A DNA stretch of 25,935 nt, taken from the IMG/VR virus record IMGVR_UViG_2636415858_000002, positions 1 through 25,935 of that record. One strand, given 5' to 3'. The stretch is from a virus. Lineage: Duplodnaviria; Heunggongvirae; Uroviricota; Caudoviricetes. The position numbers and the translations under genes were made by a program. Below are positions 376-20,120 of this stretch, piece by piece. The notes beneath the pieces were generated by a model, which worked only from the letters and a program-made list of their open reading frames with translations, searched no databases and was not told the origin of the DNA. Each line of letters begins with the position of its first letter. Position 1 is the first letter of the stretch.

Positions 376-713
376 CTGATAAAAGCGCCCTGTACTGGTT
401 AGCAATAGCAAATTTACTCCCAGCTGCTCTGATTTCAAGAAAGCTGTACACCTCCCTTATGCCTATATTTTTAACCGGAACACCACCAAAGTATTCACTT
501 ATGATTTTCAACCTCTGGTTGTGTCTTTTCATGGTGTTTGTGCTTAATTGTCTACGCTCTATTTCATTTCTGAAATTTAATATCAGCTCGCAGAATAATG
601 TTACGCTATTACCTTTTATTCTATCCAGTAAGCTTATATGTTGCGTGGATAATAATTCCATATTTGCCGCAATAGCCTCATTAACTGCAATTCTTTTGTC
701 TCTTCCGATTCCA
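376..713 (-). pseudogene. int: lambda-type tyrosine integrase, N-terminal fragment cut at both ends by IS elements
   Basis: Minus-strand translation GIGRDKRIAVNEAIAANMELLS...NSVTLFCELILNFRNEI parallels lambda Int GLGRDRRIAITEAIQANIELFS...NSVTLHSWLDRYEKIL (recalled); bounded by IS1 at 714 and IS911 at 375. Confidence 0.55.
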
Positions 714-728
714 GGTAATGACTCCAAC

Positions 729-1232: not shown

Positions 1233-1426
1233 CCGACGCCATTCATGGCCATATCAATGATTTTCTGGTGCGTACCGGGCTGAGAGGCGGTGTAAGTGAA
1301 CTGTAGTTGCCATGTTTTACGGCAATGAGAGCAGAGATAGCGCTGATGTCCGGCAGTGCTTTTGCCGTTACGCACCACGCCTTCAGTAGCGGAGCAGGAA
1401 GGACATCTGATGGAAATGGAAGCCAC
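1151..1426 (-). CDS. insA: IS1 InsA
   Basis: 91-aa [45 protein letters not shown]..., zinc-finger/HTH protein of IS1. Confidence 0.9.
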
Positions 1427-1778
1427 GCAAGCACCTTAAAATCACCATCATACACTAAATCAGTAAGTTGGCAGCATTACCCCATTGCTGGCATAAATTC
1501 AGTTTCGAATATTCAGTTAATTAAAGTTCGTGTGCCATCTTGTCTTTTTCGGCACAAGCTGCACCGCAATATTTTCGTTTCTTTCTGGCAATCATGTTTC
1601 CATGCATATAAATAAGCTCGCCAGTAAAAGCTTTTTCAGGTAAAAACTGTTTATTGCAGAGATGGTAATCACATTGTATTAAATCCGGGTCACCTTTTTG
1701 CTGGAGAATTTTTCTGATTCTCCACAGCCATTTTTTAATCCCGGTATGACTGATGGTCTGCCTGAGGTGGTTCTTTTT

Positions 1779-2597
1779 TTAAGCAGCCATCTGATGATAT
1801 TTTTCCCTGAAGGCTGCCGGGGAGATATTCCCCAGACGAGAGTGACGACGCTGACGATTGTAGAAAATCTCAATGTATTCCCGTATTACTGAGATGGCTT
1901 CATCCCGGTTATTAAAATGATAGTGGCTCAGGCTCTCATTTTTCAGCGTTCCCCAGAAGCTTTCCATCGGAGCGTTGTCGTAACAGTGACCTTTACGCGA
2001 CATTGATGTTTTCAGACCAGACTGCTCCTGTATGACCCGGTAATCGTATGCGCAGTACTGTGAACCTCGATCAGAGTGGTGGATTAGCCCGGCAGGTGGG
2101 CGCTGGCTCCTGAGCGCCATAAACAGGGCTTTACCTGTCAGCTCTTTTGTCATGCGCTCTCCCATGGCGTAGCCGACAATTTCGCACGTATAAACATCTT
2201 TGATGCCAGCGAGGTACAACCATCCCTCCTGTGTGGCAACATACGTCAGGTCCGCCACCCAGACCTGATTTGGTGCTGTAGGAGCGAACGTCTGGTTCAG
2301 CAGATTTGGCGCAACTGGCAGATTGTGGTTCGGGTTCGTAGTCGCTCTGAACTTGCGTTTCTGCTTACAGCGTAGCCTTAGCTCCTTACGAAGACGTGCC
2401 AGTCGGTCACGACCAACGATGATGCCATTCTCTGCCAGCTCCGTCTGGAGCCGCCGGGTTCCATATGTTTCGCGAGTGCGGATATGTGCCACCTTAATCT
2501 CCAGTTTTAGCCGCTCATCACTTTGTTTTCTGTCTGAGGGTTCATGCTGTACCCAGTTGTAATAACCGCTCCTGGATACACCAAATACCTGACACAT
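1779..2597 (-). CDS. IS600 OrfB transposase catalytic frame (DDE)
   Basis: 272-aa ORF MCQVFGVSRSGYYNW...; one substitution (SHYHF vs SHYRF) relative to the other three copies. Confidence 0.85.
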   Translation of the reverse strand: MCQVFGVSRSGYYNWVQHEPSDRKQSDERLKLEIKVAHIRTRETYGTRRLQTELAENGIIVGRDRLARLRKELRLRCKQKRKFRATTNPNHNLPVAPNLLNQTFAPTAPNQVWVADLTYVATQEGWLYLAGIKDVYTCEIVGYAMGERMTKELTGKALFMALRSQRPPAGLIHHSDRGSQYCAYDYRVIQEQSGLKTSMSRKGHCYDNAPMESFWGTLKNESLSHYHFNNRDEAISVIREYIEIFYNRQRRHSRLGNISPAAFREKYHQMAA

Positions 2598-2646
2598 CGC
2601 TTCAATGGGAAATTGTTGTCGCCATTGTTCGATTAACGCGTATTTT

Positions 2647-2934
2647 TCAGCGACTCCTGTGCAAAATACGCTGTTGCTTTTTTAATATATCTCGCTCAAG
2701 GCGAGCTTCATTTAACGCCTTACGCAGTTGCAGAATTTCAGATTCCAGTTCAGCCACCGTGCGGGAACCAGGAGTACCGAGCCCTTTTCTGGCGGCGGTA
2801 ACCCATTGTCCTAAAGTGCCTTCAGGAAGGGATAATCGGGAAGCGCCTTCACTGATCGAAAGTTGATTTTCAAGAACCGTTCTGACAGCTTCGGCTTTGA
2901 ACTCTTTAGAGTAACGTTGGTTTTTTCTGCTCAT
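2647..2934 (-). CDS. IS600 OrfA, 95-aa variant (ends KKQQRILHRSR)
   Basis: ORF-track protein; differs from the 100-aa form only after the poly-A run. Confidence 0.8.
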   Translation of the reverse strand: MSRKNQRYSKEFKAEAVRTVLENQLSISEGASRLSLPEGTLGQWVTAARKGLGTPGSRTVAELESEILQLRKALNEARLERDILKKQQRILHRSR

Positions 2935-2998
2935 TATTAGCTCCTTCTGATGCCATTCTATTTCAGGAAGGAGTGTCCGTTAAACTCAGGCTACCTCA

Positions 2999-3187
2999 AT
3001 CTTCTCTTATTTTGAAATACAGATTCGTCAGATAAGTCAGAAGCCCCAGAAGCAGACTTCCCAGCACACCAATCGCAGCCCACTGTGATGGACTGACCTG
3101 ATCCAACCACTGCAAAAACCAGTAGCCGGCACTGCCGGCGGAGGTGCCGTAGGCAATGCCCGTTGAAATTTTGTCCATGGATTTCAT
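2999..3187 (-). pseudogene. phage-21-type class II holin (S21/EssD-like), truncated at C-terminus by IS600
   Basis: [63 protein letters not shown]; dual-start M-K-S-M motif; GGAGGTGA RBS; stop codon supplied by the IS600 terminus at 2996..2998. Confidence 0.75.
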
Positions 3188-3900: not shown

Positions 3901-4320
3901 CTCTTTCAAATGTCCATGTGAAGTGGTCAACAAAAACTGGCCACCGAGTTAGAGTTTTTCCAGTATCGATTTTCCGATTCGTTTGGGGGTAACCCACCGT
4001 TATATTCGTGCGGTCTTAGTGCGCTGTAATATCCAACGATATAGTCCGTTATGGCGTGAGCTGCCTCGCTGGGTAATGCTGCCAACTTACTGATTTAGTG
4101 TATGATGGTGATTTTAAGGTGCTTGCGTGGCTTCCATTTCCATCAGATGTCCTTCCTGCTCCGCTACTGAAGGCGTGGTGCGTAACGGCAAAAGCACTGC
4201 CGGACATCAGCGCTATCTCTGCTCTCATTGCCGTAAAACATGGCAACTACAGTTCACTTACACTGCCTCTCAGCCCGGTACGCACCAGAAAATCATTGAT
4301 ATGGCCATGAATGGCGTCGG

Positions 4321-5872
<1,552 letters not shown>

Positions 5873-6017
5873 TGGAGCACCTGTGTTGTTCTGAGGTGAG
5901 CATATCACCTCTGTTCAGGTGGCCAAATTCAGTGTGCCACTTCAGGTGCCGAACCTTCCTCCGGATATAATCTGTGATTCCCCAATCAACAGAACCAGAG
6001 GAGGTTCGGCATAAACA

Positions 6018-6440
6018 TCAATGCACAACGACAGAATCGTCGGACGACCCACCACCGCTGAAATGTGCTTTCCGGTAAACGGCCTGAACTGCGTCATCAT
6101 GCGCATCAATTGCCGTACTCAACGCTTCCTGCGCCGCCAGTAATGCACGGCGTTCCAGGGTATCGAAGATACAGAGTCGGTGACGCAGCTCACGCGGAAG
6201 AATTGCCAGAACCGCAGGGATCAGTTTCTGAATTTTCTCCCTTTGCGCTTTCGTTTCACCTTTCAACCAACGGTGATAGATATTCTGCTGATTGTTCCAG
6301 TCCTTGCCTGGTACCAGAGGCAATTCGCCGCCCCCCTGCCGCAGATATTCTTCAGTAATTGCGTTAGCGACCCACGCCTGCCCTTTTTCGGCTGCCAGGG
6401 CTAACAGCACTGATTCGATGTGCTCATGCCTGATTTTCAT
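6018..6440 (-). CDS. ydaT: ydaT-like prophage protein (Rac-type CII-like/toxin-like)
   Basis: 140-aa ORF MKIRHEHIESVLLALAAEKGQAW...; resembles YdaT as recalled (MKIKHEHI... start); overlaps the upstream cro-like gene by 17 nt. Confidence 0.55.
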   Translation of the reverse strand: MKIRHEHIESVLLALAAEKGQAWVANAITEEYLRQGGGELPLVPGKDWNNQQNIYHRWLKGETKAQREKIQKLIPAVLAILPRELRHRLCIFDTLERRALLAAQEALSTAIDAHDDAVQAVYRKAHFSGGGSSDDSVVVH

Positions 6441-6651
6441 GAATCACCTTCCCAGGTCGTTTTGCCTTACGATATTCGTCATAAACTTTGGGGTCGTACT
6501 GAAGTTCCCCGCCAGATGCCTCTTGCAGGCGCATCGCGCGGCCTTCAGGAACCAGTTCCCCCCATGCAGCAATGCTTGCCAGCCTAACTCCTGCGGCATT
6601 GGCAAGCTTTGTTTTGCTGCCAAAAAACGCTATAGCATCAATTTTCAACAT
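6424..6651 (-). CDS. Cro/YdaS-like small HTH regulator
   Basis: 75-aa ORF with HTH-like region KTKLANAAGVRLASIAAWG; AGGAG RBS 6 nt upstream; divergent from the repressor gene. Confidence 0.6.
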   Translation of the reverse strand: MLKIDAIAFFGSKTKLANAAGVRLASIAAWGELVPEGRAMRLQEASGGELQYDPKVYDEYRKAKRPGKVIHENQA

Positions 6652-6658
6652 ATCGAGC

Positions 6659-6678
6659 TCCTTAGATTTTCCTAAGGA
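6659..6678. promoter_or_regulatory. operator-like palindrome tccttag-N6-ctaagga between divergent cro-like and repressor genes
   Basis: Perfect 7-bp inverted arms read directly; sits between the cro-like start (6651) and repressor start (6728). Confidence 0.4.
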
Positions 6679-6727
6679 AACTAGATCGTAGAGAAACCTA
6701 AGTCAAGAAAGATTAGAATTCCCTAAT

Positions 6728-7135
6728 ATGAAAAACGAAACCTTCGGTGCTCGCCTCTTACATAGGCGTAAAAAATTAAAACTGTCTCAGGCCGCATTAG
6801 GTAAGCTGGTCAAAGTGGCTCACGTAACAATTTCTCAATGGGAAAGAGATGAAACACAGCCGGCGGGGAAAAGATTATTCGCACTGAGCCAAGCGCTTCA
6901 GTGCTCACCGACTTGGCTTCTTTTTGGGGATGAAGATAAACAACCAGGCGAACCGATCCCGGATAATCAGCCAGCCATTCTGACAGAAGATCAAAAAGAG
7001 TTACTTCAACTGTTCGACGCACTGCCTGAGTCAGAGCAAAAGGCCCTGTTGTCAGAGATGCGTGCTCGAGTTGAAAATTTCAACAAACTTTTTGAAGAAC
7101 TACTCAAAACTCGCAAAAGAAGCGCAAACAAATAA
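6728..7135 (+). CDS. CI-like prophage repressor (XRE-family HTH N-domain with C-terminal extension)
   Basis: 135-aa ORF; HTH segment LKLSQAALGKLVKVAHVTISQWERDE; no obvious SD, possibly leaderless like lambda cI. Confidence 0.65.
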   Translation: MKNETFGARLLHRRKKLKLSQAALGKLVKVAHVTISQWERDETQPAGKRLFALSQALQCSPTWLLFGDEDKQPGEPIPDNQPAILTEDQKELLQLFDALPESEQKALLSEMRARVENFNKLFEELLKTRKRSANK

Positions 7136-7337
7136 TCCCCTTTTTTCTCCACACCCTGTAATAAAAAGCACAAACTTTCAAACACTTGTGTTTTTTACAT
7201 CAAAAAAACTTAGGTTTTTATACATAAAATCTTGACTCCACGTCTTAGGTTATTCTAAATTTCATTCATCAAGACACCGCACGGTGTTCTCAGCAAACAG
7301 TTCCACTACCCCGGCGTTAAGGGGAAATGAGGTCAGC

Positions 7338-7490
7338 ATGGATACTATCGATCTTGGCAACAACGAATCCCTAGTGTGTGGCGTGTTTCCCAATCAGGAC
7401 GGCACATTCACCGCCATGACGTATACCAAAAGCAAAACGTTTAAAACCGAAGCTGGCGCACGTCGCTGGCTTGCCAAAAATACCAGCTAA
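7338..7490 (+). CDS. ydfA: small prophage protein, YdfA-like (DUF1391-type)
   Basis: MDTIDLGNNESLVCGVFPNQDGTFTAMTYTKSKTFKTEAGARRWLAKNTS with GAGG RBS; start taken at internal Met of the 68-aa track ORF. Confidence 0.55.
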   Translation: MDTIDLGNNESLVCGVFPNQDGTFTAMTYTKSKTFKTEAGARRWLAKNTS

Positions 7491-7577
7491 TCCATTTATT
7501 GGATTAATTCAATATTCTCGCTGTAGAGGTATAGTGAGGTGTACTGGCAATAGCGGACACTACCATTTGTTCTTTTT

Positions 7578-8396
7578 TTAAGCAGCCATCTGATGATATT
7601 TTTCCCTGAAGGCTGCCGGGGAGATATTCCCCAGACGAGAGTGACGACGCTGACGATTGTAGAAAATCTCAATGTATTCCCGTATTACTGAGATGGCTTC
7701 ATCCCGGTTATTAAAACGATAGTGGCTCAGGCTCTCATTTTTCAGCGTTCCCCAGAAGCTTTCCATCGGAGCGTTGTCGTAACAGTGACCTTTACGCGAC
7801 ATTGATGTTTTCAGACCAGACTGCTCCTGTATGACCCGGTAATCGTATGCGCAGTACTGTGAACCTCGATCAGAGTGGTGGATTAGCCCGGCAGGTGGGC
7901 GCTGGCTCCTGAGCGCCATAAACAGGGCTTTACCTGTCAGCTCTTTTGTCATGCGCTCTCCCATGGCGTAGCCGACAATTTCGCACGTATAAACATCTTT
8001 GATGCCAGCGAGGTACAACCATCCCTCCTGTGTGGCAACATACGTCAGGTCCGCCACCCAGACCTGATTTGGTGCTGTAGGAGCGAACGTCTGGTTCAGC
8101 AGATTTGGCGCAACTGGCAGATTGTGGTTCGGGTTCGTAGTCGCTCTGAACTTGCGTTTCTGCTTACAGCGTAGCCTTAGCTCCTTACGAAGACGTGCCA
8201 GTCGGTCACGACCAACGATGATGCCATTCTCTGCCAGCTCCGTCTGGAGCCGCCGGGTTCCATATGTTTCGCGAGTGCGGATATGTGCCACCTTAATCTC
8301 CAGTTTTAGCCGCTCATCACTTTGTTTTCTGTCTGAGGGTTCATGCTGTACCCAGTTGTAATAACCGCTCCTGGATACACCAAATACCTGACACAT
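7578..8396 (-). CDS. IS600 OrfB
   Basis: 272-aa DDE transposase frame. Confidence 0.9.
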   Translation of the reverse strand: MCQVFGVSRSGYYNWVQHEPSDRKQSDERLKLEIKVAHIRTRETYGTRRLQTELAENGIIVGRDRLARLRKELRLRCKQKRKFRATTNPNHNLPVAPNLLNQTFAPTAPNQVWVADLTYVATQEGWLYLAGIKDVYTCEIVGYAMGERMTKELTGKALFMALRSQRPPAGLIHHSDRGSQYCAYDYRVIQEQSGLKTSMSRKGHCYDNAPMESFWGTLKNESLSHYRFNNRDEAISVIREYIEIFYNRQRRHSRLGNISPAAFREKYHQMAA

Positions 8397-8431
8397 CGCT
8401 TCAATGGGAAATTGTTGTCGCCATTGTTCGA

Positions 8432-8734
8432 TTAACGCGTATTTTTCAGCGACTCCTGTGCAAAATACGCTGTTGCTTTTTTTAATATATCTCGCTCAAG
8501 GCGAGCTTCATTTAACGCCTTACGCAGTTGCAGAATTTCAGATTCCAGTTCAGCCACCGTGCGGGAACCAGGAGTACCGAGCCCTTTTCTGGCGGCGGTA
8601 ACCCATTGTCCTAAAGTGCCTTCAGGAAGGGATAATCGGGAAGCGCCTTCACTGATCGAAAGTTGATTTTCAAGAACCGTTCTGACAGCTTCGGCTTTGA
8701 ACTCTTTAGAGTAACGTTGGTTTTTTCTGCTCAT
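8432..8734 (-). CDS. IS600 OrfA (100 aa)
   Basis: MSRKNQRYSKEFKAEAVRTVLENQLSISEGASRLSLPEGTLGQW...KKATAYFAQESLKNTR. Confidence 0.9.
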   Translation of the reverse strand: MSRKNQRYSKEFKAEAVRTVLENQLSISEGASRLSLPEGTLGQWVTAARKGLGTPGSRTVAELESEILQLRKALNEARLERDILKKATAYFAQESLKNTR

Positions 8735-8857
8735 TATTAGCTCCTTCTGATGCCATTCTATTTCAGGAAGGAGTGTCCGTTAAACTCAGGCTACCTCAGC
8801 CTGAGGGCAGGTGTAAAACAATAATCAAGCATGGGGTTCATATCCATAGCTCCATTT

Positions 8858-9403
8858 TTATTTTAAGGAAAGCAACTGCTCTACGGTCATGTTTTTAATT
8901 GCGCCCCGGTTTACAAGAGTCCAGCCCTGTTTTTCCAGATAAAACCGGAAAGTCTCCAGGGTACAGACCAGTGCGCCATCAGGAACGGTTTCGGTGAATT
9001 CGACATTGCCGAATTTGTCGAAGTGAACAACCAGAGTGCGACCATCACCCGGAATCATCTTGTCAGCAGGTGGGGTGTTATTCTGGCGCAGTTCGGCCTC
9101 CATGCGGTCGAACTCAGCAATGTAGGCTTCCTTGAATGTGGCGGCTTTTTTGCCCGTGAAGCCCATCACCAGGAAAACGAAGCCGTTTTTGGTGATTTGG
9201 TAGGCGTTATAAGAATTGCCGCGGTGTTCGAATTTAACCCGCGAAAAGTTGCTGGTTAAAAATAGTTCAGAACATTCGAAGGATTCTATTTTTTGAACAA
9301 CATGGTGATGCTGCTTGCCAAAAAACTCAGCAATCGAAATAGAAGTAGTGACGGCGCGACCATTTTCGATGGTTACGTCAGGGTGAGAAAGGGTAGTAGC
9401 CAT
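8858..9403 (-). CDS. rha: Rha-family phage regulatory protein
   Basis: Start MATTLSHPDVTIENGRAVTTSISIAEFFGKQHHHVVQKIESF... with GAGGA RBS; the longer track ORF (to 9697) is an in-frame non-coding extension. Confidence 0.7.
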   Translation of the reverse strand: MATTLSHPDVTIENGRAVTTSISIAEFFGKQHHHVVQKIESFECSELFLTSNFSRVKFEHRGNSYNAYQITKNGFVFLVMGFTGKKAATFKEAYIAEFDRMEAELRQNNTPPADKMIPGDGRTLVVHFDKFGNVEFTETVPDGALVCTLETFRFYLEKQGWTLVNRGAIKNMTVEQLLSLK

Positions 9404-9567
9404 AATGACATCCTCAAGTGATAAGTTAATTAACTCACCAGCAGAGGTGCTAATCTCATGGGTGGTGAGACGCACAGGGTTAGCACTACCGGTCACTCGA
9501 GAACCCGGCCAGCCTTGCGGCTGCCCCGCACGCCTCACCATAATTTGAATGTGGCTGTGCATTACGC

Positions 9568-9592
9568 ATAAAAAAACCGCTTCAGCGCGGTT
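9568..9592 (-). terminator. intrinsic terminator candidate (stem aaccgc/gcggtt, loop 6 nt, 7 U on minus strand)
   Basis: Plus strand ataaaaaaaccgcttcagcgcggtt. Confidence 0.45.
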
Positions 9593-9719
9593 ATGCGCTC
9601 GAGTAACTTTCGGGGTGCTAATCCCGGCACCCGTTTTATGAGGTGCAGGTGCACTATAATTCCACCCGTTCTGGTTTTCAATAGCTACATTCAACATTTT
9701 CTCTTTCCTTTCATCACCG

Positions 9720-9874
9720 AAGTGAATTTTGTGATGCGGTGCCTAGTGCCTCCAGGTGACGTTAACCAGTTAACAATTACAGTCGGCTTTCCCACCCAAA
9801 CCAATAAGGACTAACATGACTTTTAACTGTGCCGCGTGCGCTTAGCCGCATTCACCGCATCACAAAATTCACTT
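9720..9874. repeat. 22-bp perfect inverted repeats (aagtgaattttgtgatgcggtg / caccgcatcacaaaattcactt) flanking a 111-bp core
   Basis: Read directly: left arm 9720..9741, right arm 9853..9874; core contains near-palindrome gttaaccagttaac. Confidence 0.7.
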
Positions 9875-10141
9875 TAAAAAGGGCGGACATCAGCCAGCAA
9901 TTAAACCGATGCCGCCAACTGGTACTTCACACAGCAATGTCGTTATTTACAACCGGAAGCGCACTCCCACCATTTAAATTTCACAGACAAGACCGACTCT
10001 TTATGAATACCGGAAATGCGCCTTCGTGTTGTGCCCGGTTTTATTTCACCACCTCCGGGCTTTGGTGGCCTCGGCTATGAGGTAGCCTGAGTTTAACGGA
10101 CACTCCTTCCTGAAATAGAATGGCATCAGAAGGAGCTAATA

Positions 10142-10444
10142 ATGAGCAGAAAAAACCAACGTTACTCTAAAGAGTTCAAAGCCGAAGCTGTCAGAACGGT
10201 TCTTGAAAATCAACTTTCGATCAGTGAAGGCGCTTCCCGATTATCCCTTCCTGAAGGCACTTTAGGACAATGGGTTACCGCCGCCAGAAAAGGGCTCGGT
10301 ACTCCTGGTTCCCGCACGGTGGCTGAACTGGAATCTGAAATTCTGCAACTGCGTAAGGCGTTAAATGAAGCTCGCCTTGAGCGAGATATATTAAAAAAAG
10401 CAACAGCGTATTTTGCACAGGAGTCGCTGAAAAATACGCGTTAA
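10142..10444 (+). CDS. IS600 OrfA (100 aa)
   Basis: Identical protein to 8432..8734. Confidence 0.9.
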   Translation: MSRKNQRYSKEFKAEAVRTVLENQLSISEGASRLSLPEGTLGQWVTAARKGLGTPGSRTVAELESEILQLRKALNEARLERDILKKATAYFAQESLKNTR

Positions 10445-10479
10445 TCGAACAATGGCGACAACAATTTCCCATTGAAGCG

Positions 10480-11298
10480 ATGTGTCAGGTATTTGGTGTA
10501 TCCAGGAGCGGTTATTACAACTGGGTACAGCATGAACCCTCAGACAGAAAACAAAGTGATGAGCGGCTAAAACTGGAGATTAAGGTGGCACATATCCGCA
10601 CTCGCGAAACATATGGAACCCGGCGGCTCCAGACGGAGCTGGCAGAGAATGGCATCATCGTTGGTCGTGACCGACTGGCACGTCTTCGTAAGGAGCTAAG
10701 GCTACGCTGTAAGCAGAAACGCAAGTTCAGAGCGACTACGAACCCGAACCACAATCTGCCAGTTGCGCCAAATCTGCTGAACCAGACGTTCGCTCCTACA
10801 GCACCAAATCAGGTCTGGGTGGCGGACCTGACGTATGTTGCCACACAGGAGGGATGGTTGTACCTCGCTGGCATCAAAGATGTTTATACGTGCGAAATTG
10901 TCGGCTACGCCATGGGAGAGCGCATGACAAAAGAGCTGACAGGTAAAGCCCTGTTTATGGCGCTCAGGAGCCAGCGCCCACCTGCCGGGCTAATCCACCA
11001 CTCTGATCGAGGTTCACAGTACTGCGCATACGATTACCGGGTCATACAGGAGCAGTCTGGTCTGAAAACATCAATGTCGCGTAAAGGTCACTGTTACGAC
11101 AACGCTCCGATGGAAAGCTTCTGGGGAACGCTGAAAAATGAGAGCCTGAGCCACTATCGTTTTAATAACCGGGATGAAGCCATCTCAGTAATACGGGAAT
11201 ACATTGAGATTTTCTACAATCGTCAGCGTCGTCACTCTCGTCTGGGGAATATCTCCCCGGCAGCCTTCAGGGAAAAATATCATCAGATGGCTGCTTAA
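10480..11298 (+). CDS. IS600 OrfB
   Basis: Identical protein to 7578..8396; frame is -1 relative to orfA across the A7 run at 10393..10399. Confidence 0.9.
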   Translation: MCQVFGVSRSGYYNWVQHEPSDRKQSDERLKLEIKVAHIRTRETYGTRRLQTELAENGIIVGRDRLARLRKELRLRCKQKRKFRATTNPNHNLPVAPNLLNQTFAPTAPNQVWVADLTYVATQEGWLYLAGIKDVYTCEIVGYAMGERMTKELTGKALFMALRSQRPPAGLIHHSDRGSQYCAYDYRVIQEQSGLKTSMSRKGHCYDNAPMESFWGTLKNESLSHYRFNNRDEAISVIREYIEIFYNRQRRHSRLGNISPAAFREKYHQMAA

Positions 11299-11343
11299 AA
11301 AAAGAACAAATGGTAGTGTCCGCTATTGCCAGTACACCTCATG

Positions 11344-11720
11344 ATGGACTGTGTGCAGTTTGTTCCCGATCCGAAAAAACGCAGCATCCGGAGACCGCTT
11401 GTTGAAGAGGATATTGAAGAAATCATTACCCGTCTTAATCTGCGTGCGGAGGTCTTTAAGCTGCATGTGGATTTTTTCGCTACCGTCGTCAGCTAGATAT
11501 CCCCCCGCGTTATCTCGACCCCGACAGACCGTTCGGGGTGGTGGATTACGTTAATGTTCCCCGTACCATTGCGACCGTTATCTCCTCCGGTAAGGCTTCA
11601 AAAGCTGAACTGGATTCTGTCCTTGGTGTGCAGGACTTATGGGATCTGCTGGAAATAATTCATGTGGATGCCCATAACGAACAGGTGATACAGGAGAACA
11701 GAAATGGCGCAGGTACTTGA
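11344..11720 (+). pseudogene. tail assembly chaperone G/GT-type 3' fragment with -1 frameshift site; 5' part removed by IS600
   Basis: Upstream frame ends VDFFATVVS* at 11496; slippery heptamer T TTT TTC at 11472..11478; -1 frame stays open to 11720, overlapping the tape-measure start. Confidence 0.5.
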
Positions 11721-13725
11721 TGAGCTTGTTCTGTCCCTCGGGATTGATGACAGGGACTTTACTGCCGGGGAACAGGCAGTACATGCTGCCCTTAACCGGC
11801 TCACGACGGTGATGGAAGGTGTCGCTGACACATTCAGTCAGGGACAGAAGAAAACCAGTGAATCACTGGAAAAAACCGGAAAAGATGCTGATAAAACGGC
11901 CCGTCGAATGGAAGATGCCGGGAAACGGGCGTCCCGTTTTTTTTCAGGGATCCGTAGCGAGATTCTGGCTCTTGCGGGTGTCAGTCTGACGCTGGGGGGG
12001 CTGAAGAACCTGGTAACAGGTTTTGCCCGTGATCTGAACCGTCTGTCCGTGGAATCCGATGCTTTTGGCATGAAGGCCAGAAATCTGGACGGATGGTTAC
12101 GGGCTGCGCGGGCAAATAATGTTGATGAAGGGGAAATGTCTGGGGCATTTTCCCGGCTTGCAAATGCAAAAGCGGCCTTCAGAGCCGGAAGGTCCTTTGA
12201 TCCTGTGTTACAGGATTTGTTTCAGGTTGCAGCCAGGGCGGGCATTAGTGTTGATTTAAATACTGACAGCACTGAAGCCATCATGCGCAAGCTGGCGGTT
12301 ATTTTTCCGCGACTGACAAAGTCCGAACAAACTGCCTACGGCAACGCGCTGGGCTTCAGTTATGCCGGACAGCAGTTTCTTGGCTCCGGTCATGCGCTGA
12401 AAGATGTGGACGAATTTACTTCCCGTTCGCAGGTTACGCCGGGGCGTACAGCGCTGGCCCGTAAGCTACGAAAAGAGCTTGTTGAGCTCGATCAGACCTG
12501 GTCCGGCATCGGGATGACGATTAGCACCGCGTTGATGCCGTACGCGCTGAAGCTCAGCCACTGGCTGGAGACACTCGGTGACTGGATGCAGCAACATCCG
12601 GAGGAAGTGAACAGGTTTATCACCACATTTCTGAATGACGTTGAGTCAGTGGCCTCCCTGGCGAATAAGGCTGCCGGAGAACTGGGGGGCTGGCAGAATG
12701 TCATTATTACGCTGATCGGGCTGAAAGTGGCGTCATGGGTGCGGGGGCTGACAAAAGCCCTCAGTGGCCCCGGAGGCCTTCTTTTTGCGATAACGGCGCT
12801 TTACCCGGTTGTTGACGGATTACTGACATCCATTGTTGGCAGGGAAAATAAGGACTGGCTGGATTCACATGGTTTTTTCTGGGCTTCAGACGGGACTTTC
12901 TTTTTCAATAAGAAAGAGATGGAGACGTATCAGACAAAACTGGATGTCGGAGAAAAGCCTGGCAACATCACCCGGGCACAATCACCCACAGTATGGCAGC
13001 AGGGCATGCTGGATACTCAGGCTTCTCAGGCAACCGGGAGGGAAGCAGCCTTCGGTGAATCCTGGCTACAGGGTATGCGTGCGACGCAGGAAAAACTCGG
13101 TAATGCCATGCAAAACCGCCAGCGACCGACGAAGACCGGGGAAGCCCTGTTAGGCTGGCTGCAACCGAAACTGTCTCAACTGGAGGAAAAATATAACCTG
13201 CCGCCCGGACTGCTGCGCAGCGTTGCGATCACCGAATCCCGTGGTAATCAGTTTGCCGTCTCACCTGCTGGTGCGATGGGACTGTTTCAGTTCATGCCGA
13301 AGACGGCCAGTGAATTTGGTCTGAGGGGGAACGATGCCTTTGATCCCGAAAAAGCCGCTGATGCCGCCGCGAGAAAACTTGGTGGCCTGATACGTTTTTT
13401 TCATGGCGATCTGGCTAAGGCTCTGGCGGCATATAACTGGGGAGAGGGAAATGTTCAGCGTAAGGGACTGGCTGCTGCTCCGGAGGAGACCCGCAACTAT
13501 ATTCCGCGGGTGCTGGCGAACCTGCCTTATCCGGGTGCGGCAATGGCCATACGGTCGCTCCATCCTGCGCCTGTATCGCAGTCCACCGTAACGGAAACCA
13601 CGCATATCGGGACACTGAATGTCACCACAACGTCGGACAATGTGAAGGGTATTACCGATGACGCACGTCGGCGTATCACGAATTCGGCGCTTGTGTCGGT
13701 TTATTCCAGCGGGGTAACAGGATGA
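11704..13725 (+). CDS. tail tape-measure-like protein with C-terminal lytic transglycosylase (SLT) domain
   Basis: 673 aa; AGGAGA RBS; SLT motifs ITESRGNQFAVSPAGAMGLFQFMP and AAYNWGEGN; position directly after chaperone frameshift site. Confidence 0.7.
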   Translation: MAQVLDELVLSLGIDDRDFTAGEQAVHAALNRLTTVMEGVADTFSQGQKKTSESLEKTGKDADKTARRMEDAGKRASRFFSGIRSEILALAGVSLTLGGLKNLVTGFARDLNRLSVESDAFGMKARNLDGWLRAARANNVDEGEMSGAFSRLANAKAAFRAGRSFDPVLQDLFQVAARAGISVDLNTDSTEAIMRKLAVIFPRLTKSEQTAYGNALGFSYAGQQFLGSGHALKDVDEFTSRSQVTPGRTALARKLRKELVELDQTWSGIGMTISTALMPYALKLSHWLETLGDWMQQHPEEVNRFITTFLNDVESVASLANKAAGELGGWQNVIITLIGLKVASWVRGLTKALSGPGGLLFAITALYPVVDGLLTSIVGRENKDWLDSHGFFWASDGTFFFNKKEMETYQTKLDVGEKPGNITRAQSPTVWQQGMLDTQASQATGREAAFGESWLQGMRATQEKLGNAMQNRQRPTKTGEALLGWLQPKLSQLEEKYNLPPGLLRSVAITESRGNQFAVSPAGAMGLFQFMPKTASEFGLRGNDAFDPEKAADAAARKLGGLIRFFHGDLAKALAAYNWGEGNVQRKGLAAAPEETRNYIPRVLANLPYPGAAMAIRSLHPAPVSQSTVTETTHIGTLNVTTTSDNVKGITDDARRRITNSALVSVYSSGVTG

Positions 13726-14432
13726 GTTTTTCTTTCGATAATATTTCCCTGAATAACTTTTCGCTCAGTGAAAGTAACGTACTGAGTGCAGTTCGTGGCG
13801 GCGGTGTCCTGGGACTCATTAATAGTGTACTGGCACCGTCATTCGGTATTTATTACGCACGGAATGATCCGGCAGGTGCCCATCAGAAGGGTGGCAAACC
13901 TTTCTCCCCGGATTCTTTTGTTGTCGTTGAGGTGGGCGCGGAGGCTTCTGTTTCCACCGTCCCCGTGGAGCAGGGGGCTTATACCACCTTTAATAAAATC
14001 CAGAGATCGCCGGAACTGCATGTGACTTTCATTGTAGAGGGGTGGACGGCCTTTTCCGGATCCGTCCCGAACCTGACAAATTTTTCCACCACCTCGCGGA
14101 CGAATGTGCTGGAAACGCTTGAAAGGATGCGTACCACGGCAGGACTCTACGATATTGAGACGCCGGACAAGACATGGACATCCTGCGACCTTGTGAAATA
14201 TGACTACCGAATGCGAAGTAATAATGGTCCGACCTTACTGACGGTTACTGCGGTATTTCAGACCGTAATGAATACAGGAGAGGTGTCAGTGGGAAGTACG
14301 GATAAGTCGTCTCCCACGGACAACGATAAAGCAAAAGGGGCCGCATCGGTTAAAACGCAGCCAGTTACGGCGTCGGTGACACAACCGTCAGACGCTGACA
14401 GACGAAGTGCCACGAACAGGGGGATCACCTGA
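13722..14432 (+). CDS. phage tail protein, function unassigned
   Basis: 236-aa ORF; ATGA overlap with the tape-measure stop; no family recognised. Confidence 0.5.
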
Positions 14433-14734
14433 TGCTGGAAATTGTTTTATCTCCCGTTAAAGCCCAGCAGTTTACGGTGACACTGGGCGCTCAGGTCTGC
14501 ACCATTCGCCTGAATCAGCGTACTACGGGGATGTATATCGATATCATTGTTAATGGTGAACCGTGCCTGTATGGCGTGCTGTGTCTGAATAATAACCGGA
14601 TTGTCCGGTACGGATACCTGCCGTTTCAGGGGGACCTGTTTTTTACCGACACGGAGGGGAATAGTGACCCTGACTGGCGGGGGCTCGGATCCCGGTACCG
14701 GCTCTACTGGCTGTTACCTGAGGAACTGATATGA
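14432..14734 (+). CDS. phage tail protein, function unassigned
   Basis: 100-aa ORF; TGATG overlap with the upstream gene; no family recognised. Confidence 0.45.
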
Positions 14735-14841
14735 GCTACAGACAACGTAAAATAAGTAAGCGTAAACTGACCGCCGTATGTAGCCATTAAGCCTGTATTG
14801 GTAACGTAGGTGCCCACCTTTTCAACTAGTGGACACCTGTT

Positions 14842-15261
14842 ATGGAACAGAAAGCATTATCTGCAGAACCCCGCAGATCATTTTCAAATGAGTTTAAACT
14901 TCAAATGGTTAAACTGGCTTCACAACCAGGAGCCTCTGTTGCCCGTATTGCCCGGGAACACGATATCAATGATAACCTGCTGTTCAAATGGCTCAGGCTC
15001 TGGCAGAACGAAGGGCGCATATCGCGGCGTCTTCCGGTAACAACCTCTTCTGACACTGGCGTTGAATTATTACCTGTGGAGATAACGCCGGATGAGCCGA
15101 AAGAACCTGTGGCTGCTCTTACTTCGTCTTTATCTACTCAGACTACAGTTAGTGCCAGCTCCTGCAAGGTGGAGTTCCGTCACGGTAACATGACGCTGGA
15201 AAATCCTTCACCAGAGCTGCTCACAGTGTTGATCCGTGAACTGACCGGGAGGGGACGATGA
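14842..15261 (+). CDS. IS66-family Orf1 (HTH accessory protein)
   Basis: 139-aa ORF, first of the three-gene IS66 arrangement. Confidence 0.7.
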   Translation: MEQKALSAEPRRSFSNEFKLQMVKLASQPGASVARIAREHDINDNLLFKWLRLWQNEGRISRRLPVTTSSDTGVELLPVEITPDEPKEPVAALTSSLSTQTTVSASSCKVEFRHGNMTLENPSPELLTVLIRELTGRGR

Positions 15262-15608
15262 TCTCACTCCCGTCAGGCACCCGCATCTGGCTCGTTGCTG
15301 GGATAACCGATATGCGTAAGTCTTTCAACGGGCTGGGTGAACAGGTACAGCATGTGCTGAATGATAATCCCTTCTCCGGTCACCTGTTCATCTTCCGTGG
15401 CCGACGGGGTGACATGATTAAAATCCTGTGGGCTGATGCTGATGGTCTGTGCCTGTTCACCAGACGCCTGGAGGAAGGCCAGTTTATCTGGCCTGCTGTG
15501 CGTGACGGCAAGGTATCCATTACCCGCTCGCAACTGGCAATGCTCCTCGATAAGCTGGACTGGCGTCAGCCAAAAACATCCCGCCTTAATGCACTGACAA
15601 TGTTGTAA
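15258..15608 (+). CDS. IS66-family Orf2 (TnpB-type accessory protein)
   Basis: 116-aa ORF MISLPSGTRIWLVAGITDMRKSFNGL... Confidence 0.75.
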   Translation: MISLPSGTRIWLVAGITDMRKSFNGLGEQVQHVLNDNPFSGHLFIFRGRRGDMIKILWADADGLCLFTRRLEEGQFIWPAVRDGKVSITRSQLAMLLDKLDWRQPKTSRLNALTML

Positions 15609-15638
15609 AAATGTCATGGCCGGATTATAAAAACGGCC

Positions 15639-17231
15639 ATGAATCAAAAATACCTCATTCGCATTGCAGAACTGGAATGCCAGCTCCGTCAGAAAGACCA
15701 GCAACTGAGTCTGGTTGAAGAGACGGAGGCCTTCCTGCGCTCTGCACTGGCCCGCGCCGAAGAAAAGATCGAAGAAGATGAACGGGAAATAGAACATCTG
15801 CGGGCTCAGATAGAAAAACTGCGCCGGATGCTGTTCGGTACCCGTTCTGAAAAACTGCGTCGTGAAGTTGAACAGGCTGAGGCCCTGCTGAAACAACGCG
15901 AACAGGACAGTGATCGTTACAGTGGGCGGGAAGACGATCCGCAGGTTCCCCGCCAGTTGCGACAGTCTCGTCATCGTCGCCCGTTACCGGAGCATCTGCC
16001 CCGCGAAATAAATCGCCTGGAGCCAGAAGAAAGCTGTTGCCCGGAGTGTGGCGGTGAGCTGGATTATCTGGGGGAAGTCAGCGCAGAACAACTGGAACTG
16101 GTGAGCAGCGCTCTGAAAGTGATCCGCACAGAACGGGTAAAAAAAGCCTGTACAAAATGTGACTGCATCGTTGAAGCACCGGCACCATCCCGTCCGATAG
16201 AGCGTGGTATCGCGGGCCCGGGGTTACTTGCCCGCGTGTTAACGGGAAAATACTGCGAACACCTGCCACTGTATCGTCAGAGTGAAATTTTTGCCCGTCA
16301 GGGTGTCGAACTGAGCCGTGCATTACTCTCCAACTTGGTTGACGCGTGCTGCCAGTTAATGACGCCGCTGAATGATGCTCTGTACCGTTATGTAATGAAC
16401 AGCCGCAAAGTTCACACTGATGACACACCAGTAAAAGTGCTGGCACCGGGCAGGAAGAAGGCGAAAACAGGATATATCTGGACGTATGTCCGGGATGACA
16501 GGAATGCCGGTTCGCCAGAGCCTCCGGCGGTCTGGTTCGCCTACTCACCGGACCATCAGGGTAAACATCCGGAGCAGCACCTTAGTCCCTTCCGGGGTAT
16601 CCTGCAGGCAGATGCGTTTAATGGTTACGATCGGCTGTTCAGTGCCGAACGAGAAGGCGGCGCGTTGACGGAAGCAGGATGCTGGGCTCATGCGCGGCGC
16701 AAAGTCCACGATGTATATATCAGTACCAAAAGCGCGACAGCGGAAGAAGCCCTGAAACTAATCGGTGAGCTGTACGCCATCGAGCACGAAATACGCGGGT
16801 TGCCGGTGTCTGAACGCCTGGCGGTCAGGCAAATGCAGAGTAAACCGCTACTGACTTCCCTGTATAAGCTGATGCAGGAGAAAGAACACACGTTATCGAA
16901 AAAATGCCGTCTGAGAGATGCGTTCCGGTATATCAGGAAGCACTGGGTTGCGTTGTGCAACTTCAGTGATGATGGTCTGGCTGAGGCGGATAATAATGCC
17001 GCGGAAAGAGCGCTTCGTGCAGTCTGTCTCGGAAAGAAAAACTTTATGTTCTTCGGCAGCGATCACGGTGGAGAGCGTGGTGCGCTACTGTACGGGCTGA
17101 TCGGCACCTGCCGACTGAACGGTATCGATCCGGAAGCGTATCTGCGCTATATCCTGAGCGTACTGCCGGAATGGCCTTCCAACCGTGTTGACGAACTCCT
17201 GCCATGGAACGTAGCACTCACCAATAAATAA
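15639..17231 (+). CDS. IS66-family transposase (Orf3)
   Basis: 530-aa ORF with N-terminal coiled coil, CPECGG zinc-finger-like motif and DDE-type core. Confidence 0.8.
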
Positions 17232-17262
17232 GCGTCAATACGGTGCTCCGTTGACGCTTACC

Positions 17263-18006
17263 CATGATACTGATGTAGTCACGCTTTATCGTTTTCACGA
17301 AGCTCTCTGCTATTCCGTTACTCTCCGGACTCCGCACCGCCGTGTTCTTCGGTTCAAGTCCCAACATCCGGGCGAACTGGCGTGCTTCATTAGCCCGGTA
17401 GCATGAACCATTATCCGTCAGCCACTCCACTGGAGACGACGGAAGATCGTTGCCGAAGCGGCGTTCCACCGCTCCCAGCATGACGTCCTGTACTGTTTCA
17501 CTGTTGAAGCCGCCGGTAGTCACCGCCCAGTGCAGTGCCTCACGATCACAGCAGTCCAGCGCGAACGTGACACGCAGTCTCTCTCCGTTATCACAGCAGA
17601 ACTCGAACCCGTCAGAGCACCATCGCTGATTGCTTTCTTTCACGGCCACTCTGCCTGTATGTGCCCGTTTCGATGGCGGTACAGCAGGTTTTCGCTCAAG
17701 CAACAGCGCATTCTGGCGCATGATCCGGTAAACACGTTTGGCATTGATCGCAGGCATACCATCAAGTTCTGCCTGTCTGCGAAGCAGCGCCCATACCCGA
17801 CGATAACCATACGTGGGCAGCTCTCCGATAACATGGTGTATACGGAGAAGCACATCCGTATCATCAGTGTGACGACTGCGGCGGCCATCCATCCAGTCAT
17901 CGGTTCGTCTGAGAATGACGTGCAACTGCGCACGCGACACCCGGAGACAACGGCTGACTAAGCTTACTCCCCATCCCCGGGCAATAAGGGCGCGTGCGCT
18001 ATCCAC
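17263..18006 (-). pseudogene. insD: IS2 OrfB transposase, C-terminally truncated
   Basis: Matches InsD up to ...KRDYISIM, then reads into the IS66-family element end. Confidence 0.8.
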
Positions 18007-18329
18007 TTTTTTGCCCGTCCATATTCAACGGCTTCTTTGAGGAGTTCATTTTCCATCGTTTTCTTGCCGAGCAGGCGCTGGAGTTCTTTAATCTGCTTCA
18101 TGGCGGCAGCAAGTTCAGAGGCAGGAACAACCTGTTCTCCGGCGGCCACAGCAGTAAGACTTCCTTCCTGGTATTGCTTACGCCAGAGAAATAACTGGCT
18201 GGCTGCTACACCATGTTGCCGGGCAACGAGGGAGACCGTCATCCCCGGTTCAAAGCTCTGCTGAACAATTGCGATCTTTTCCTGTGTGGTACGCCGTCTG
18301 CGTTTCTCCGGCCCTAAGACATCAATCAT
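17964..18329 (-). CDS. insC: IS2 OrfA
   Basis: [56 protein letters not shown]... Confidence 0.85.
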
Positions 18330-18420
18330 CTGTACTCCAATGACTAGTCTAAAAACTAGTATTAAGACTATCACTTATTTAAGTGATACTGGTTGTCTGG
18401 AGATTCAGGGGGCCAGTCTA

Positions 18421-18746
18421 ATCAGGCACCGTTTTACAACGGAAAATCGGATACCCGGACTGTTGACCTGTCTGATGCTGTATACCGGCGGCTGATACTG
18501 ATGAAAGCCATGTCGAACATTACTGACTGTTCCGTTCCGGATATTAACCGGATGCTGAGATTTATGTTCGGAAAAAAACGGCGAGCTTATGTTCTGAATA
18601 ATGGTGGGCTGAGGATGAGTTACATCTTTGAGTCCGCGCTCTCGTTGGCAGAACTGGCGATTATCCAGTCGTCGGGTGCACTGCCGTCCCCGCCGGGTGT
18701 TTATGTTTCAGTAGTTTTAAAGGAGTCCCGTAATGAAGGCCAGTGA
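18421..18746 (+). pseudogene. phage baseplate-type protein (P2 gpI-like position), 3' fragment; 5' part lost at the IS2 junction
   Basis: Frame continuous from the IS2 end to a stop overlapping the tail-fibre ATG (TAATG); assignment by position only. Confidence 0.35.
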
Positions 18747-20118
18747 TAAACCCCGCCAGCTGGCGGTCCCCTTTGCGAGTACCGGAGATAAAAACCGTAT
18801 CCCGGACAAGGCGACACAGCAGACCAGAGAGAGCGGTAATGCTGCGTATGATTCAGGTTTTCCTCCGGTGACCATGACAGCGGTCTCAGCGGGAGGTATA
18901 CCGCCACACGGCAAGGATTTTAACGGTCTGATGTACGATATTACCGCAGCAATACGGTTCGCCCAGGCTGGCGGTTTGTACACGTATAATGCCGGTTTTG
19001 CGGGGGCCATTGGTGGATATGCAAAAGGAGCCATTCTCGCCGGAGTCGCAACAACAGCGGTCTGGCTGAATACCACAGACGATAACCTGACCGATCCTGA
19101 AGGCTCCGACAGTGCGGGCTGGGTAAATCTTCTTGAGGATCCGAAAAGGATATTCCTGCGGCAGAAGAACAATCTGTCAGACCTTCAGAATAAAGGGACG
19201 GTACGGGATAATCTTCAGGTTTACAGTAAAGAGCAGTCAGATCAACGCTATGTTCATCGGGAAGGCGATAAAATAACCGGAGAGCTGAAAATCCGTGGTG
19301 TTAATGCGCTGAGGATTTTCAACGAAGCTTTTGGCCTGATTTTTCGTCGTTCGGAAGAGTGCCTGCACCTTATTCCCACCAGTGAAGGTCAGGGGGAAAA
19401 TGGCGATATTGGTCCCCTGCGCCCGTTCACCATTAATTTGCGGACGGGTGAAATATCCATGTCGCATAAAGTGTCTGTTGGCGGTGGTTCGCAGGTCAAT
19501 GGTGCGCTGGGTATCGGCGTTCAGAACGCCCTGGGGGGGAATTCAATTGTTCTTGGTGATAATGACACCGGATTTAAACAGAATGGAGACGGTATTCTGG
19601 ATGTTTATGCTAATAGTCAGCGTGTATTCCGCTTTCAGAATGGAGTGGCTATTGCTTTTAAGAATATTCAGGCCGGAACTGCCAGAAAATTCACGTTATC
19701 CAGCGCCAACAACTCCACGAAAAATGCAGCGTTTTATTTGTGGGGTAATCCATCCAGGTCTGTTGTTGCAGAGCTTGGCGATGATTCAGGCTGGCATTTT
19801 TTCAGCCAGAGGAATACAGATAACAGCATCACGTTCGCCGTAAACGGACAGGTAATTCCGTTAAATTACGGAAACTTCGATGCCCGCTATAAACATCGAA
19901 CTGAGGGGGTACAGGATGTGCGGTATGGTTATGAAATGTATTACAACCCTGGCAGCAACACCGTTTCATGGACGTTTCGCTCACCTTCGGGACACGGGTT
20001 GTCAGGGATATCGATATCGGATACCGGCCGTAACTCAGCGGATAACGTCAACGGTGTGTATTACCGACCGCTGCAAAAACTGATTAATGGCATCTGGTAT
20101 AACGTAGCGAGTATTTAA
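18733..20118 (+). CDS. tail fibre protein with P2 gpH-like C-terminal domain
   Basis: 461 aa; C-terminal region [51 protein letters not shown]...[11 protein letters not shown] resembles the P2 H C-terminus as recalled. Confidence 0.7.
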
Positions 20119-20120
20119 CA

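Follow-up and report, generated by a model that had tools for sequence, protein, structure and literature searches.

As judged by comparison with related loci, the region studied here is the tail end of a single contractile-tailed prophage that carries ipaH and is decaying in the chromosome of a Shigella. Almost certainly, five of its baseplate genes were lost within one prophage that first received an IS2 and then underwent a single IS66-associated deletion of ~3.57 kb. The window (the whole stretch of 25,935 nucleotides that was analyzed, IMG/VR record IMGVR_UViG_2636415858_000002) consists to 45% of insertion sequences, namely two IS1, four IS600, one IS3-family element, an IS2, and an IS66-family element. 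Only the phage genes from the tape measure to the plug and from a wedge gene fragment to the fibres are left in the remnant; absent are the head, neck, sheath, and tube genes as well as five baseplate genes. The tail-fibre region ends with an IpaH-family effector gene (24124..25935, minus strand), and the intact prophage of an enteroinvasive-type Escherichia coli (L001) has the same arrangement. The rest of the window is pieced together from two or more prophage remnants, with IS600 copies at the joins.

The left phage flank includes three intact genes, all on the plus strand. A 673-amino acid protein with a lytic transglycosylase domain (11704..13725; Pfam SLT; 99.8% to L001) is the presumed tape measure, since its gene comes after those for tube and chaperone in intact relatives. 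It is followed by a Dit-like baseplate protein of 236 amino acids (13722..14432; Pfam Dit_like, annotated as “phage baseplate protein” in L001 by RefSeq) and by a baseplate plug protein of 100 amino acids (14432..14734; Pfam Pam3_gp18, E=1.7e-22), which is the last intact gene on this side and whose exact sequence is present in 1,953 blocks of the collection. A preliminary description of this DNA had placed the left phage end at 14734. The plug reading frame does end there, but phage sequence reaches 14755, and a 25-nt stub of the baseplate hub gene (14731..14755, plus strand; 8 codons, MSYRQRKI) is cut by the IS66-family element. Our alignment to the L001 hub coding sequence (15098..15967) ends at L001 15122, which corresponds to window position 14755.

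The right phage flank begins at 18421 with a 3′ fragment, as had been proposed, and we find that this fragment belongs to a DUF2612/Wedge1 wedge gene (18421..18746, plus strand; 326 bp, starting with ATCAG and covering Pfam DUF2612 profile positions 82–180 of 181). The genes for a tail fibre protein of 461 amino acids (18733..20118, plus strand; RefSeq “phage tail fiber protein” in L001, exact protein in CP011511.1) and for a tail fibre assembly protein of 181 amino acids (20121..20666, plus strand; RefSeq annotation; in related loci the identical gene is matched by Pfam Caudo_TAP) come next. A stretch of ~575 bp within the fibre gene shares ~82% DNA identity with P2 gpH; fibre segments excepted, the tail module has no DNA-level match among the sequenced phages of the phage collection.

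Comparison with intact prophages names the genes that had been suspected missing between the two modules. The order in the intact prophages of enteroinvasive E. coli is tape measure, baseplate protein, plug, hub, spike, sheath initiator, baseplate J, DUF2612 wedge, fibre, fibre assembly, and ipaH. Nine enteroinvasive-type E. coli genomes (L001 and eight others) carry both flanks in one prophage, 3.4 kb apart: window positions 11341..14755 correspond to L001 11708..15122 (99.8% identity) and 18416..19270 to L001 18509..19363 (99.4% identity), and the flanks are contiguous and collinear in the uninterrupted relative, with ipaH downstream in both. Many Shigella loci likewise carry both modules contiguous in a single prophage. 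Since both flanks lie in one prophage in intact relatives, the deletion took place within a single prophage. Compared with the intact run, the window is short of exactly 3,391 bp, from the hub to the 5′ part of the wedge gene, and the gap comprises precisely the five baseplate genes expected between the modules.

Members of the IS66 family, among them IS66, IS679, ISEc8, ISEc23, and ISEc43, have three genes, as reportedly described by Han et al. (2001) and Gourbeyre et al. (2010). The gap is occupied by a complete element of this family (14756..17261, plus strand; 2,506 bp, ends GTAAGCGTAAAC...GTTGACGCTTAC), whose boundaries are exactly those first described and whose termini are the same in six full-length copies on other replicons. 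It contains intact tnpA (14842..15261, plus strand; Pfam HTH_Tnp_1), tnpB (15258..15608, plus strand; Pfam TnpB_IS66, E=2.6e-36), and tnpC (15639..17231, plus strand), the latter encoding the DDE transposase (Pfam DDE_Tnp_IS66, E=7.9e-95, together with zf-IS66, LZ_Tnp_IS66, and IS66_C), and is matched by NCBIfam transpos_IS66 with 444.6 bits (cut-off 180). The terminal inverted repeats are imperfect and start with GTAAGCGT, including the GTAAGCG motif; the left end (GTAAGCGTAAACTGACCGCCGTATG) and the reverse complement of the right end (GTAAGCGTCAACGGAGCACCGTATT) agree at all of the first 8 positions and at ~19 of the first 25. A copy that is 100% identical is located on a plasmid of S. flexneri 64-5500, and the nearest labeled relatives, at ~93% DNA identity, are annotated as “ISEc43 family” by RefSeq. 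The supplement lists of Hawkey et al. yielded no unambiguous ISfinder name.

Three of the six reference copies are flanked by perfect 8-bp duplications (TGAAAACA, GAACGTGA, and AGCTAAAA), and the other three are not. As previously noted, the window copy has no 8-bp target-site duplication either, with TAAAATAA on its left and CCATGATA on its right. Because the same element duplicates 8 bp elsewhere, the missing duplication reflects a secondary event and does not argue against IS66 membership. The element was active in this lineage: in one related locus (L036) a second copy is nested inside the first with an 8-bp duplication (AAAACGGC).

Adjacent to the IS66-family element we find a truncated IS2 (17263..18420, minus strand; 1,158 of 1,331 bp), which shares 99.65% sequence identity (4 mismatches in 1,158 bp) with positions 174..1331 of the complete IS2 of locus L009 and is assigned by Pfam HTH_Tnp_1 on orfA and by HTH_21 and rve on orfB. 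The alignment agrees with the reported break of orfB at 17263, after ...KRDYISIM. The orfA-side terminus (TAGACTGGCC...) is intact at 18420 and is the only one left. The missing part, put at ~170 bp before, amounts to 173 bp and comprises the orfB 3′ end and the other terminus (TGGATTTGCC end); across the whole window, only chance matches of ≤19 nt to it were detected. Having lost these 173 bp including the second terminus, the truncated IS2 is no longer able to transpose, and its internal break rules out IS2 itself as the deletion agent. ATCAG is found at both ends of the complete IS2 in L009 and once in the uninterrupted gene of L001, and the right-hand copy of this 5-bp target duplication is kept in the window (18421..18425).

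Between the right end of the IS66-family element and the start of IS2 homology there is a single C (17262, no strand) that belongs to neither. The IS2 base at this position is G in three independent IS2 copies. The junction string including this orphan C is identical in 12 sequences, the window and 11 other loci from ~9 assemblies, and these carriers include several complete chromosomes, the chromosome paired with S. flexneri 64-5500, and CP000036.1, which we take to be S. boydii Sb227. The identity of the junction down to the orphan C points to one ancestral event. A megablast search with the junction region (14300..18900) against 5,426 complete E. coli genomes returned no record at ≥80% coverage, and the papers on Shigella IS decay consulted here do not describe this IS66/IS2 junction.

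In six loci (L009, L016, L032, L037, L038, and L040), the complete 1,331-bp IS2 occupies the site of the window's IS2 and is oriented alike, and the ATCAG duplication and all baseplate genes are present. We read this arrangement, a complete IS2 in the wedge gene next to a full set of baseplate genes, as the ancestral state, and we infer that these loci belong to S. dysenteriae. Exact-protein look-ups with the plug, the fibre, the truncated IS2 OrfB, and the 81-amino acid wedge fragment (the 24 blocks with the longest contigs per look-up) recovered two states only, either the complete IS2 together with the baseplate or the deletion. The junction is a clean, single-origin lineage marker that, among the genomes compared, splits the lineage of CP000036.1 and of the chromosome paired with S. 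flexneri 64-5500 from the complete-IS2 relatives.

The course of events started with the insertion of IS2 into the DUF2612 wedge gene, generating the 5-bp ATCAG duplication, the step shown by the comparison of L001 and L009. One 2,506-bp copy of the IS66-family element would then have inserted, its target being codon 8 of the hub gene or a point 173 bp into IS2, and one end of this copy would have engaged in a transposase-mediated intramolecular event, that is an adjacent deletion, with the loss of 3,565 bp. The lost segment would span the hub gene beyond its stub, the genes for spike, sheath initiator, and baseplate J, the first 280 bp of the wedge gene together with one ATCAG copy, and the terminal 173 bp of IS2. 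Such a deletion would leave both IS66 termini exact, no 8-bp duplication, and one aberrant C at the right junction, and a tail module unable to build a baseplate, while the fibre genes and the downstream ipaH would stay. We consider the chances about even that the deletion involved one IS66 copy and its adjacent sequence, and not recombination between two copies. The signature of an adjacent deletion (a single IS copy, exact ends, an original flank on one side and a new one on the other, and no duplication) is present, and two-copy recombination yields the same signature. To our knowledge, the transposition chemistry of the IS66 family is not established, and its capacity for adjacent deletions is an assumption on our part; the titles and abstracts of the literature we found do not link IS66 with the terms adjacent deletion or intramolecular transposition. 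An inversion in place of a deletion can be rejected, as the IS2 body, the wedge fragment, and the fibre genes to the right of the IS66-family element keep their ancestral order and orientation.

The strongest competing explanation, to which we assign a probability somewhat short of one-half, invokes two IS66 copies in direct orientation, one in the hub gene (duplication TAAAATAA) and one in IS2 (duplication about GCATGATA). Their RecA-dependent recombination would excise 3.57 kb plus one IS copy and leave a hybrid copy with mismatched flanks. Exact IS ends with mismatched flanks are the classic signature of such an event, the lack of duplications in half of the reference copies is in line with it, and the element is seen to insert into or near itself in this lineage (L036). 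In addition, the 3′ end of IS2 orfB looks like a preferred insertion site, and deletion between homologous IS copies is described as a main decay route in Shigella (PMC7373316). However, two independent insertions in the same orientation within 3.6 kb would be required, neither of which was found on its own in the 24-block look-ups or in 5,426 E. coli genomes, and the C at 17262 is left unexplained (the duplication copy would have G), unless a later substitution occurred exactly there. As a non-templated or mismatched base, this C speaks slightly more for an aberrant event in one step than for two canonical insertions that recombined; it could also be a plain G-to-C substitution.

Neither an IS66 copy in a complete IS2 nor one in the hub gene with the downstream remainder was present in the 5,426 E. 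coli genomes or in the 24-block look-ups. The IS66 right end joined to TAAAATAA and the hub remainder gave no record at ≥80% coverage in the 5,426 genomes, and the IS2 tip joined to GCATGATA and the IS66 left end gave 34 records in the same collection. Two candidates for a reciprocal junction were discarded: in an E. coli O104:H4 plasmid (L030), the one record examined in detail, the insertion is another one, located in an IS2-like element at a distance of 13 bp, and the match to H92 falls into two pieces over 370 bp with no junction. From the sequence that remains, adjacent deletion and two-copy IS66 recombination cannot be told apart, as it is equally compatible with both. Three unproven scenarios would give this same sequence: IS66 insertion into IS2 followed by an adjacent deletion (the order first proposed), insertion into the hub gene first with a rightward deletion, and two-copy recombination.

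A ~36-bp stretch near the 3′ end of IS2 orfB (IS2 positions ~1124..1159) has received four independent insertions, three of the IS66-family element on different replicons and one of IS2 itself. That this stretch is an IS hot spot and that the orphan C is the footprint of a non-canonical IS66-family strand transfer appears unlikely to us. When inspected by eye, the stretch shares with the IS66 inverted repeat only AAGCGT, a match expected by chance in 1.3 kb, and we discarded this resemblance.

The preliminary description had further suggested that a tape-measure module was fused to a P2/Mu-like fibre module from a different phage. The P2 gpH-like stretch in the fibre gene and the joining of at least two prophage remnants via IS600 copies in the rest of the window would be in keeping with such a fusion, but we regard it as very improbable, given that the nine E. 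coli genomes and numerous Shigella loci have the modules contiguous, with 99.4–99.8% identity to the flanks of the window, and that the gap corresponds exactly to the five expected baseplate genes. Likeness to P2 is confined to the ~575 bp mentioned above, and the module is part of a contractile-tail baseplate of the E217 and Pam3 Pfam families. An assembly artefact, in which repeats were collapsed or mis-joined at IS copies to create a false IS66/IS2 junction, is hardly conceivable even in so IS-rich a region, of a type prone to mis-assembly, as the identical junction occurs in 11 other loci including several complete chromosomes and each element end has unique sequence context on both sides.

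With no baseplate to be built from its tail module, the remnant can produce neither particles nor tailocin activity; despite the baseplate loss it retains ipaH, an effector gene, and its fibre genes. The locus is a case of ordinary IS-driven genome decay. Beyond annotation and the correction of the two-phage fusion idea its significance is slight. Two leads are mildly interesting: IS insertions cluster toward the 3′ end of IS2 orfB, and one aberrant base stands where the IS66-family element meets IS2.

Our comparison with known systems places the tail module of the intact relatives next to that of Pseudomonas phage E217, with the E217_gp27, gp28, gp31, gp32, and gp41 Pfam families in the same gene order. 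The plug belongs to the gp18 family of cyanophage Pam3 and is followed by hub, spike, sheath initiator, baseplate J, and Wedge1. The IS2 copy is 99.65% identical to reference IS2 (IS3 family, 1,331 bp, 5-bp target duplication), with one ATCAG left. The larger element resembles other IS66 family members in its tnpA/tnpB/tnpC genes, its size of ~2.5 kb, its GTAAGCG termini, and the 8-bp duplications of its other copies; the window copy differs in lacking a duplication and in having one additional C at the right-hand junction. Chromosomal ipaH islands of Shigella were reportedly described by Jin et al. in 2002. The window shares the layout of ipaH after the fibre genes with the chromosomal ipaH islands and ipaH-carrying remnants of prophages in Shigella and enteroinvasive E. 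coli (PMC9046306). That Shigella genomes decay through deletions mediated by IS elements is documented (Hawkey et al. 2020, PMC7373316), and the window is alike in the loss of genes at IS boundaries and in an IS copy without duplication. The main subjects of that study are IS1, IS2, IS4, IS600, and IS911; it does not treat the IS66-family element, of lower copy number, that acted here.

An IS66-family element (14756..17261; 2,506 bp) abuts a truncated IS2 (17263..18420, minus strand) in the window, an arrangement that the preliminary description had read correctly from the sequence. By gene content and termini the element belongs to the IS66 family: tnpA, tnpB and tnpC are intact, with strong Pfam and NCBIfam matches, and its imperfect terminal inverted repeats start GTAAGCGT. 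The nearest named relatives are entered in RefSeq as 'ISEc43 family' (~93%); the supplement of Hawkey et al. did not resolve an ISfinder name. S. flexneri 64-5500 has a 100% identical copy on its plasmid, and plasmids of S. boydii and of S. dysenteriae carry copies at 99.6-99.8%. The termini are uniform across all six fetched full-length copies, three of which are flanked by perfect 8-bp duplications (TGAAAACA, GAACGTGA, and AGCTAAAA) and three by none. The window copy likewise has no duplication, as had been noted (flanks TAAAATAA vs CCATGATA), and we regard this as a secondary feature of that copy. In CP026811.1 (2742..7761 of the fetched locus), a second copy of the element has landed inside the first, at position 875-882, and is flanked by the 8-bp duplication AAAACGGC; hence the element was still active, with canonical transposition, after the deletion event described below.

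Both flanks of the IS pair (11341..14755, and 18416..19270 onward) match one prophage present in nine E. coli genomes, whose names and ipaH content suggest that they are enteroinvasive. The intact prophage of E. coli RMDEC364 (L001) is annotated, in order, with an SLT-domain protein (673 aa, presumably the tape measure), a baseplate protein, plug, hub (289 aa), spike (225 aa), sheath initiator (118 aa), baseplate J (413 aa), DUF2612 (wedge; 201 aa), tail fibre and fibre assembly protein, followed by ipaH on the opposite strand. The window aligns with L001 11708..15122 at 99.8% and again from L001 18509 at 99.4%. The second alignment opens with 5 bp (GTCTA) that also match the IS2 terminus; comparison of the junctions places the true phage restart at window 18421. 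The segment absent from the window is exactly L001 15123..18513 (3,391 bp), comprising the hub gene minus 25 nt, the genes for the spike, sheath initiator and J, and 280 bp from the 5' end of DUF2612. Tail genes are thus missing between the tape-measure and fibre modules, as had been proposed; the accompanying idea that these modules come from two fused phages is not supported, given their co-occurrence in one prophage. The tail is of the contractile type, with Pfam matches to Pseudomonas phage E217 families and to the Pam3 plug. At the DNA level, the phage collection yields matches to fibre segments only, among them ~575 bp at ~82% to P2 gpH, and none of its sequenced phages matches the rest of the tail module; the label P2/Mu-like fits at most part of the fibre. 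In the matching genomes the tail module occurs in 1-5 places each. E. coli CP065611.1 has two copies at distant sites, interrupted by different IS110-family elements, in the fibre region of one copy and in the hub gene of the other.

The IS2 segment is 99.65% identical to positions 174..1331 of the complete 1,331-bp IS2, counted from the TGGATTTGCC end, and is a truncated copy of IS2. Within the window, the missing 173 bp of IS2 and the missing phage DNA gave only chance matches (<=22 nt), in line with the earlier statement that the IS2 remainder does not lie on the far side of the IS66-family element. Among related chromosomal loci recovered by exact-protein look-ups, six (L009, L016, L032, L037, L038, and L040) carry a complete 1,331-bp IS2 within the DUF2612 gene, at the same nucleotide site and in the same orientation as in the window, with all baseplate genes upstream. 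We infer that some of these loci are from S. dysenteriae; CP045784.1 is the accession neighbouring a plasmid recorded as this species. The complete-IS2 state reads ...GTTTAATCAG|TGGATTTGCC...IS2...CCAGTCTA|ATCAGGCACC, and the uninterrupted gene reads GTTTAATCAGGCACC; on this comparison the IS2 insertion is canonical, with a 5-bp duplication (ATCAG). Relative to this ancestral, complete-IS2 state, the window has lost L009 8325..11889 (3,565 bp) and carries the IS66-family element and one C instead.

This C (17262) fits neither the IS66-family element, which ends ...CGCTTAC in every copy, nor IS2, where the adjoining base is G in three independent copies. Eleven other fetched loci, from about 9 assemblies, share the identical junction string GTTGACGCTTAC-C-CATGATACTGATG; they include CP000036.1 (which we take to be S. 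boydii Sb227), CP026731.1, CP182558.1 and CP026811.1, a chromosome whose paired plasmid is that of S. flexneri 64-5500. The C is kept in 12/12 junction sequences, the window included. The junction appears to have formed in one event and to have been inherited since. The C arose either by point substitution of the junction base or as a filler nucleotide in aberrant joining.

The IS66-family element and not IS2 defines the deletion, since its two ends are exact and the break in IS2 is internal. Almost certainly, a single prophage that had first acquired IS2 underwent a single IS66-associated loss of ~3.57 kb. Three histories yield one identical final sequence. The element could have entered IS2 and then produced a leftward deletion from its left end, as the preliminary description had it, or it could have entered hub codon 8 and produced a rightward deletion from its right end. 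To these two histories jointly, a transposase-mediated adjacent deletion from one copy, we give about an even chance, because one insertion suffices and the odd C suggests non-canonical joining. No chemistry has, to our knowledge, been established for IS66-family transposition, and none of the ten papers listed for IS66 has 'adjacent deletion' or 'intramolecular transposition' in its title or abstract. Alternatively, two IS66 insertions in direct orientation may have undergone homologous recombination, the route usually invoked for Shigella (PMC7373316) but one that needs two insertions; its probability falls somewhat short of even. No intermediate turned up among the longest contigs that carry the plug, wedge fragment or truncated OrfB, or in 5,426 E. 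coli genomes queried with synthetic junctions.

Four independent IS insertions lie within about 36 bp near the IS2 orfB 3' end. In the window (17262..17300), 173 bp separate the IS66 junction from the IS2 end. The distance is 186 bp between the same IS66 type and the end of an IS2-like fragment on an E. coli O104:H4 plasmid (L030, 4368..4560), the one record examined closely among 34 matching the junction query. On an S. boydii plasmid (L003, about 270..330), the IS66 element, with the duplication TGAAAACA, sits inside an IS2-like element. L035, L039 and L041 (about 6250..7780) have another complete IS2 inside the wedge-borne one, flanked by a 5-bp duplication at positions 190-194. The IS2 orfB 3' end may be an insertion hot spot, the ascertainment being partly biased.

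As a whole, the window mixes prophage remnants with insertion sequences, the latter occupying ~11.7 of 25.9 kb, the IS66-family element and IS2 included. Positions 8733..25935 (17,203 bp) are 100% identical to CP011511.1 (assembly GCA_001027225.1), presumably a Shigella boydii chromosome. Self-comparison and Pfam matches identify two IS1, four IS600-length (1,264 bp) copies and one IS3-family element. The left part holds an inverted IS1 pair (714..1482 and 4071..4839), a 5'-shortened IS600 (1770..2998), the IS3-family element (about 4840..5944; its first 375 bp recur at 1..375), an N-terminal phage integrase fragment cut by IS1 (284..727, minus), a P21-type holin gene (2996..3187, minus) and the Cro/DicA/YdaT-type immunity region of another prophage (6018..7490). 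An inverted IS600 pair (7535..8798 and 10078..11341) brackets a Rha/Ash-family gene (8858..9697, minus). The second of these copies interrupts the ipaH prophage in a gene of 134 aa that lies immediately before the presumed tape measure; the sheath, tube, neck and head genes found in L001 are therefore absent, replaced by IS600 and other prophage fragments. Further right, an IS600-length element (1,263-1,264 bp; 20934..22196) is a simple insertion, with a 3-bp duplication (CAA), into a second, lambda-type tail fibre gene (phage_tail_N ... DUF4376; fragments 20690..20980 and 22148..23944), which L009 carries without the interruption.

Reading frames remain intact for the presumed tape measure, baseplate protein, plug, fibre and fibre assembly protein; the hub, spike, sheath initiator, J and a complete wedge are absent, and the remnant is unable to form a tail. 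It keeps an IpaH-family type III effector E3 ligase gene (24124..25935, minus, running off the right window end; NCBIfam IpaH_Shig, 562.6 bits), the prophage's cargo gene, which has the same position in L001. Such retention is usual in islands of this kind (PMC9046306). The preliminary description thus stands as observation and, the two-phage fusion aside, in part as interpretation. The IS2 orfB insertion cluster and the unexplained base at 17262 are small leads in an otherwise ordinary finding, all of whose components are of known kinds: an IS66-family element, IS2, an ipaH prophage remnant and an IS-associated deletion in Shigella.
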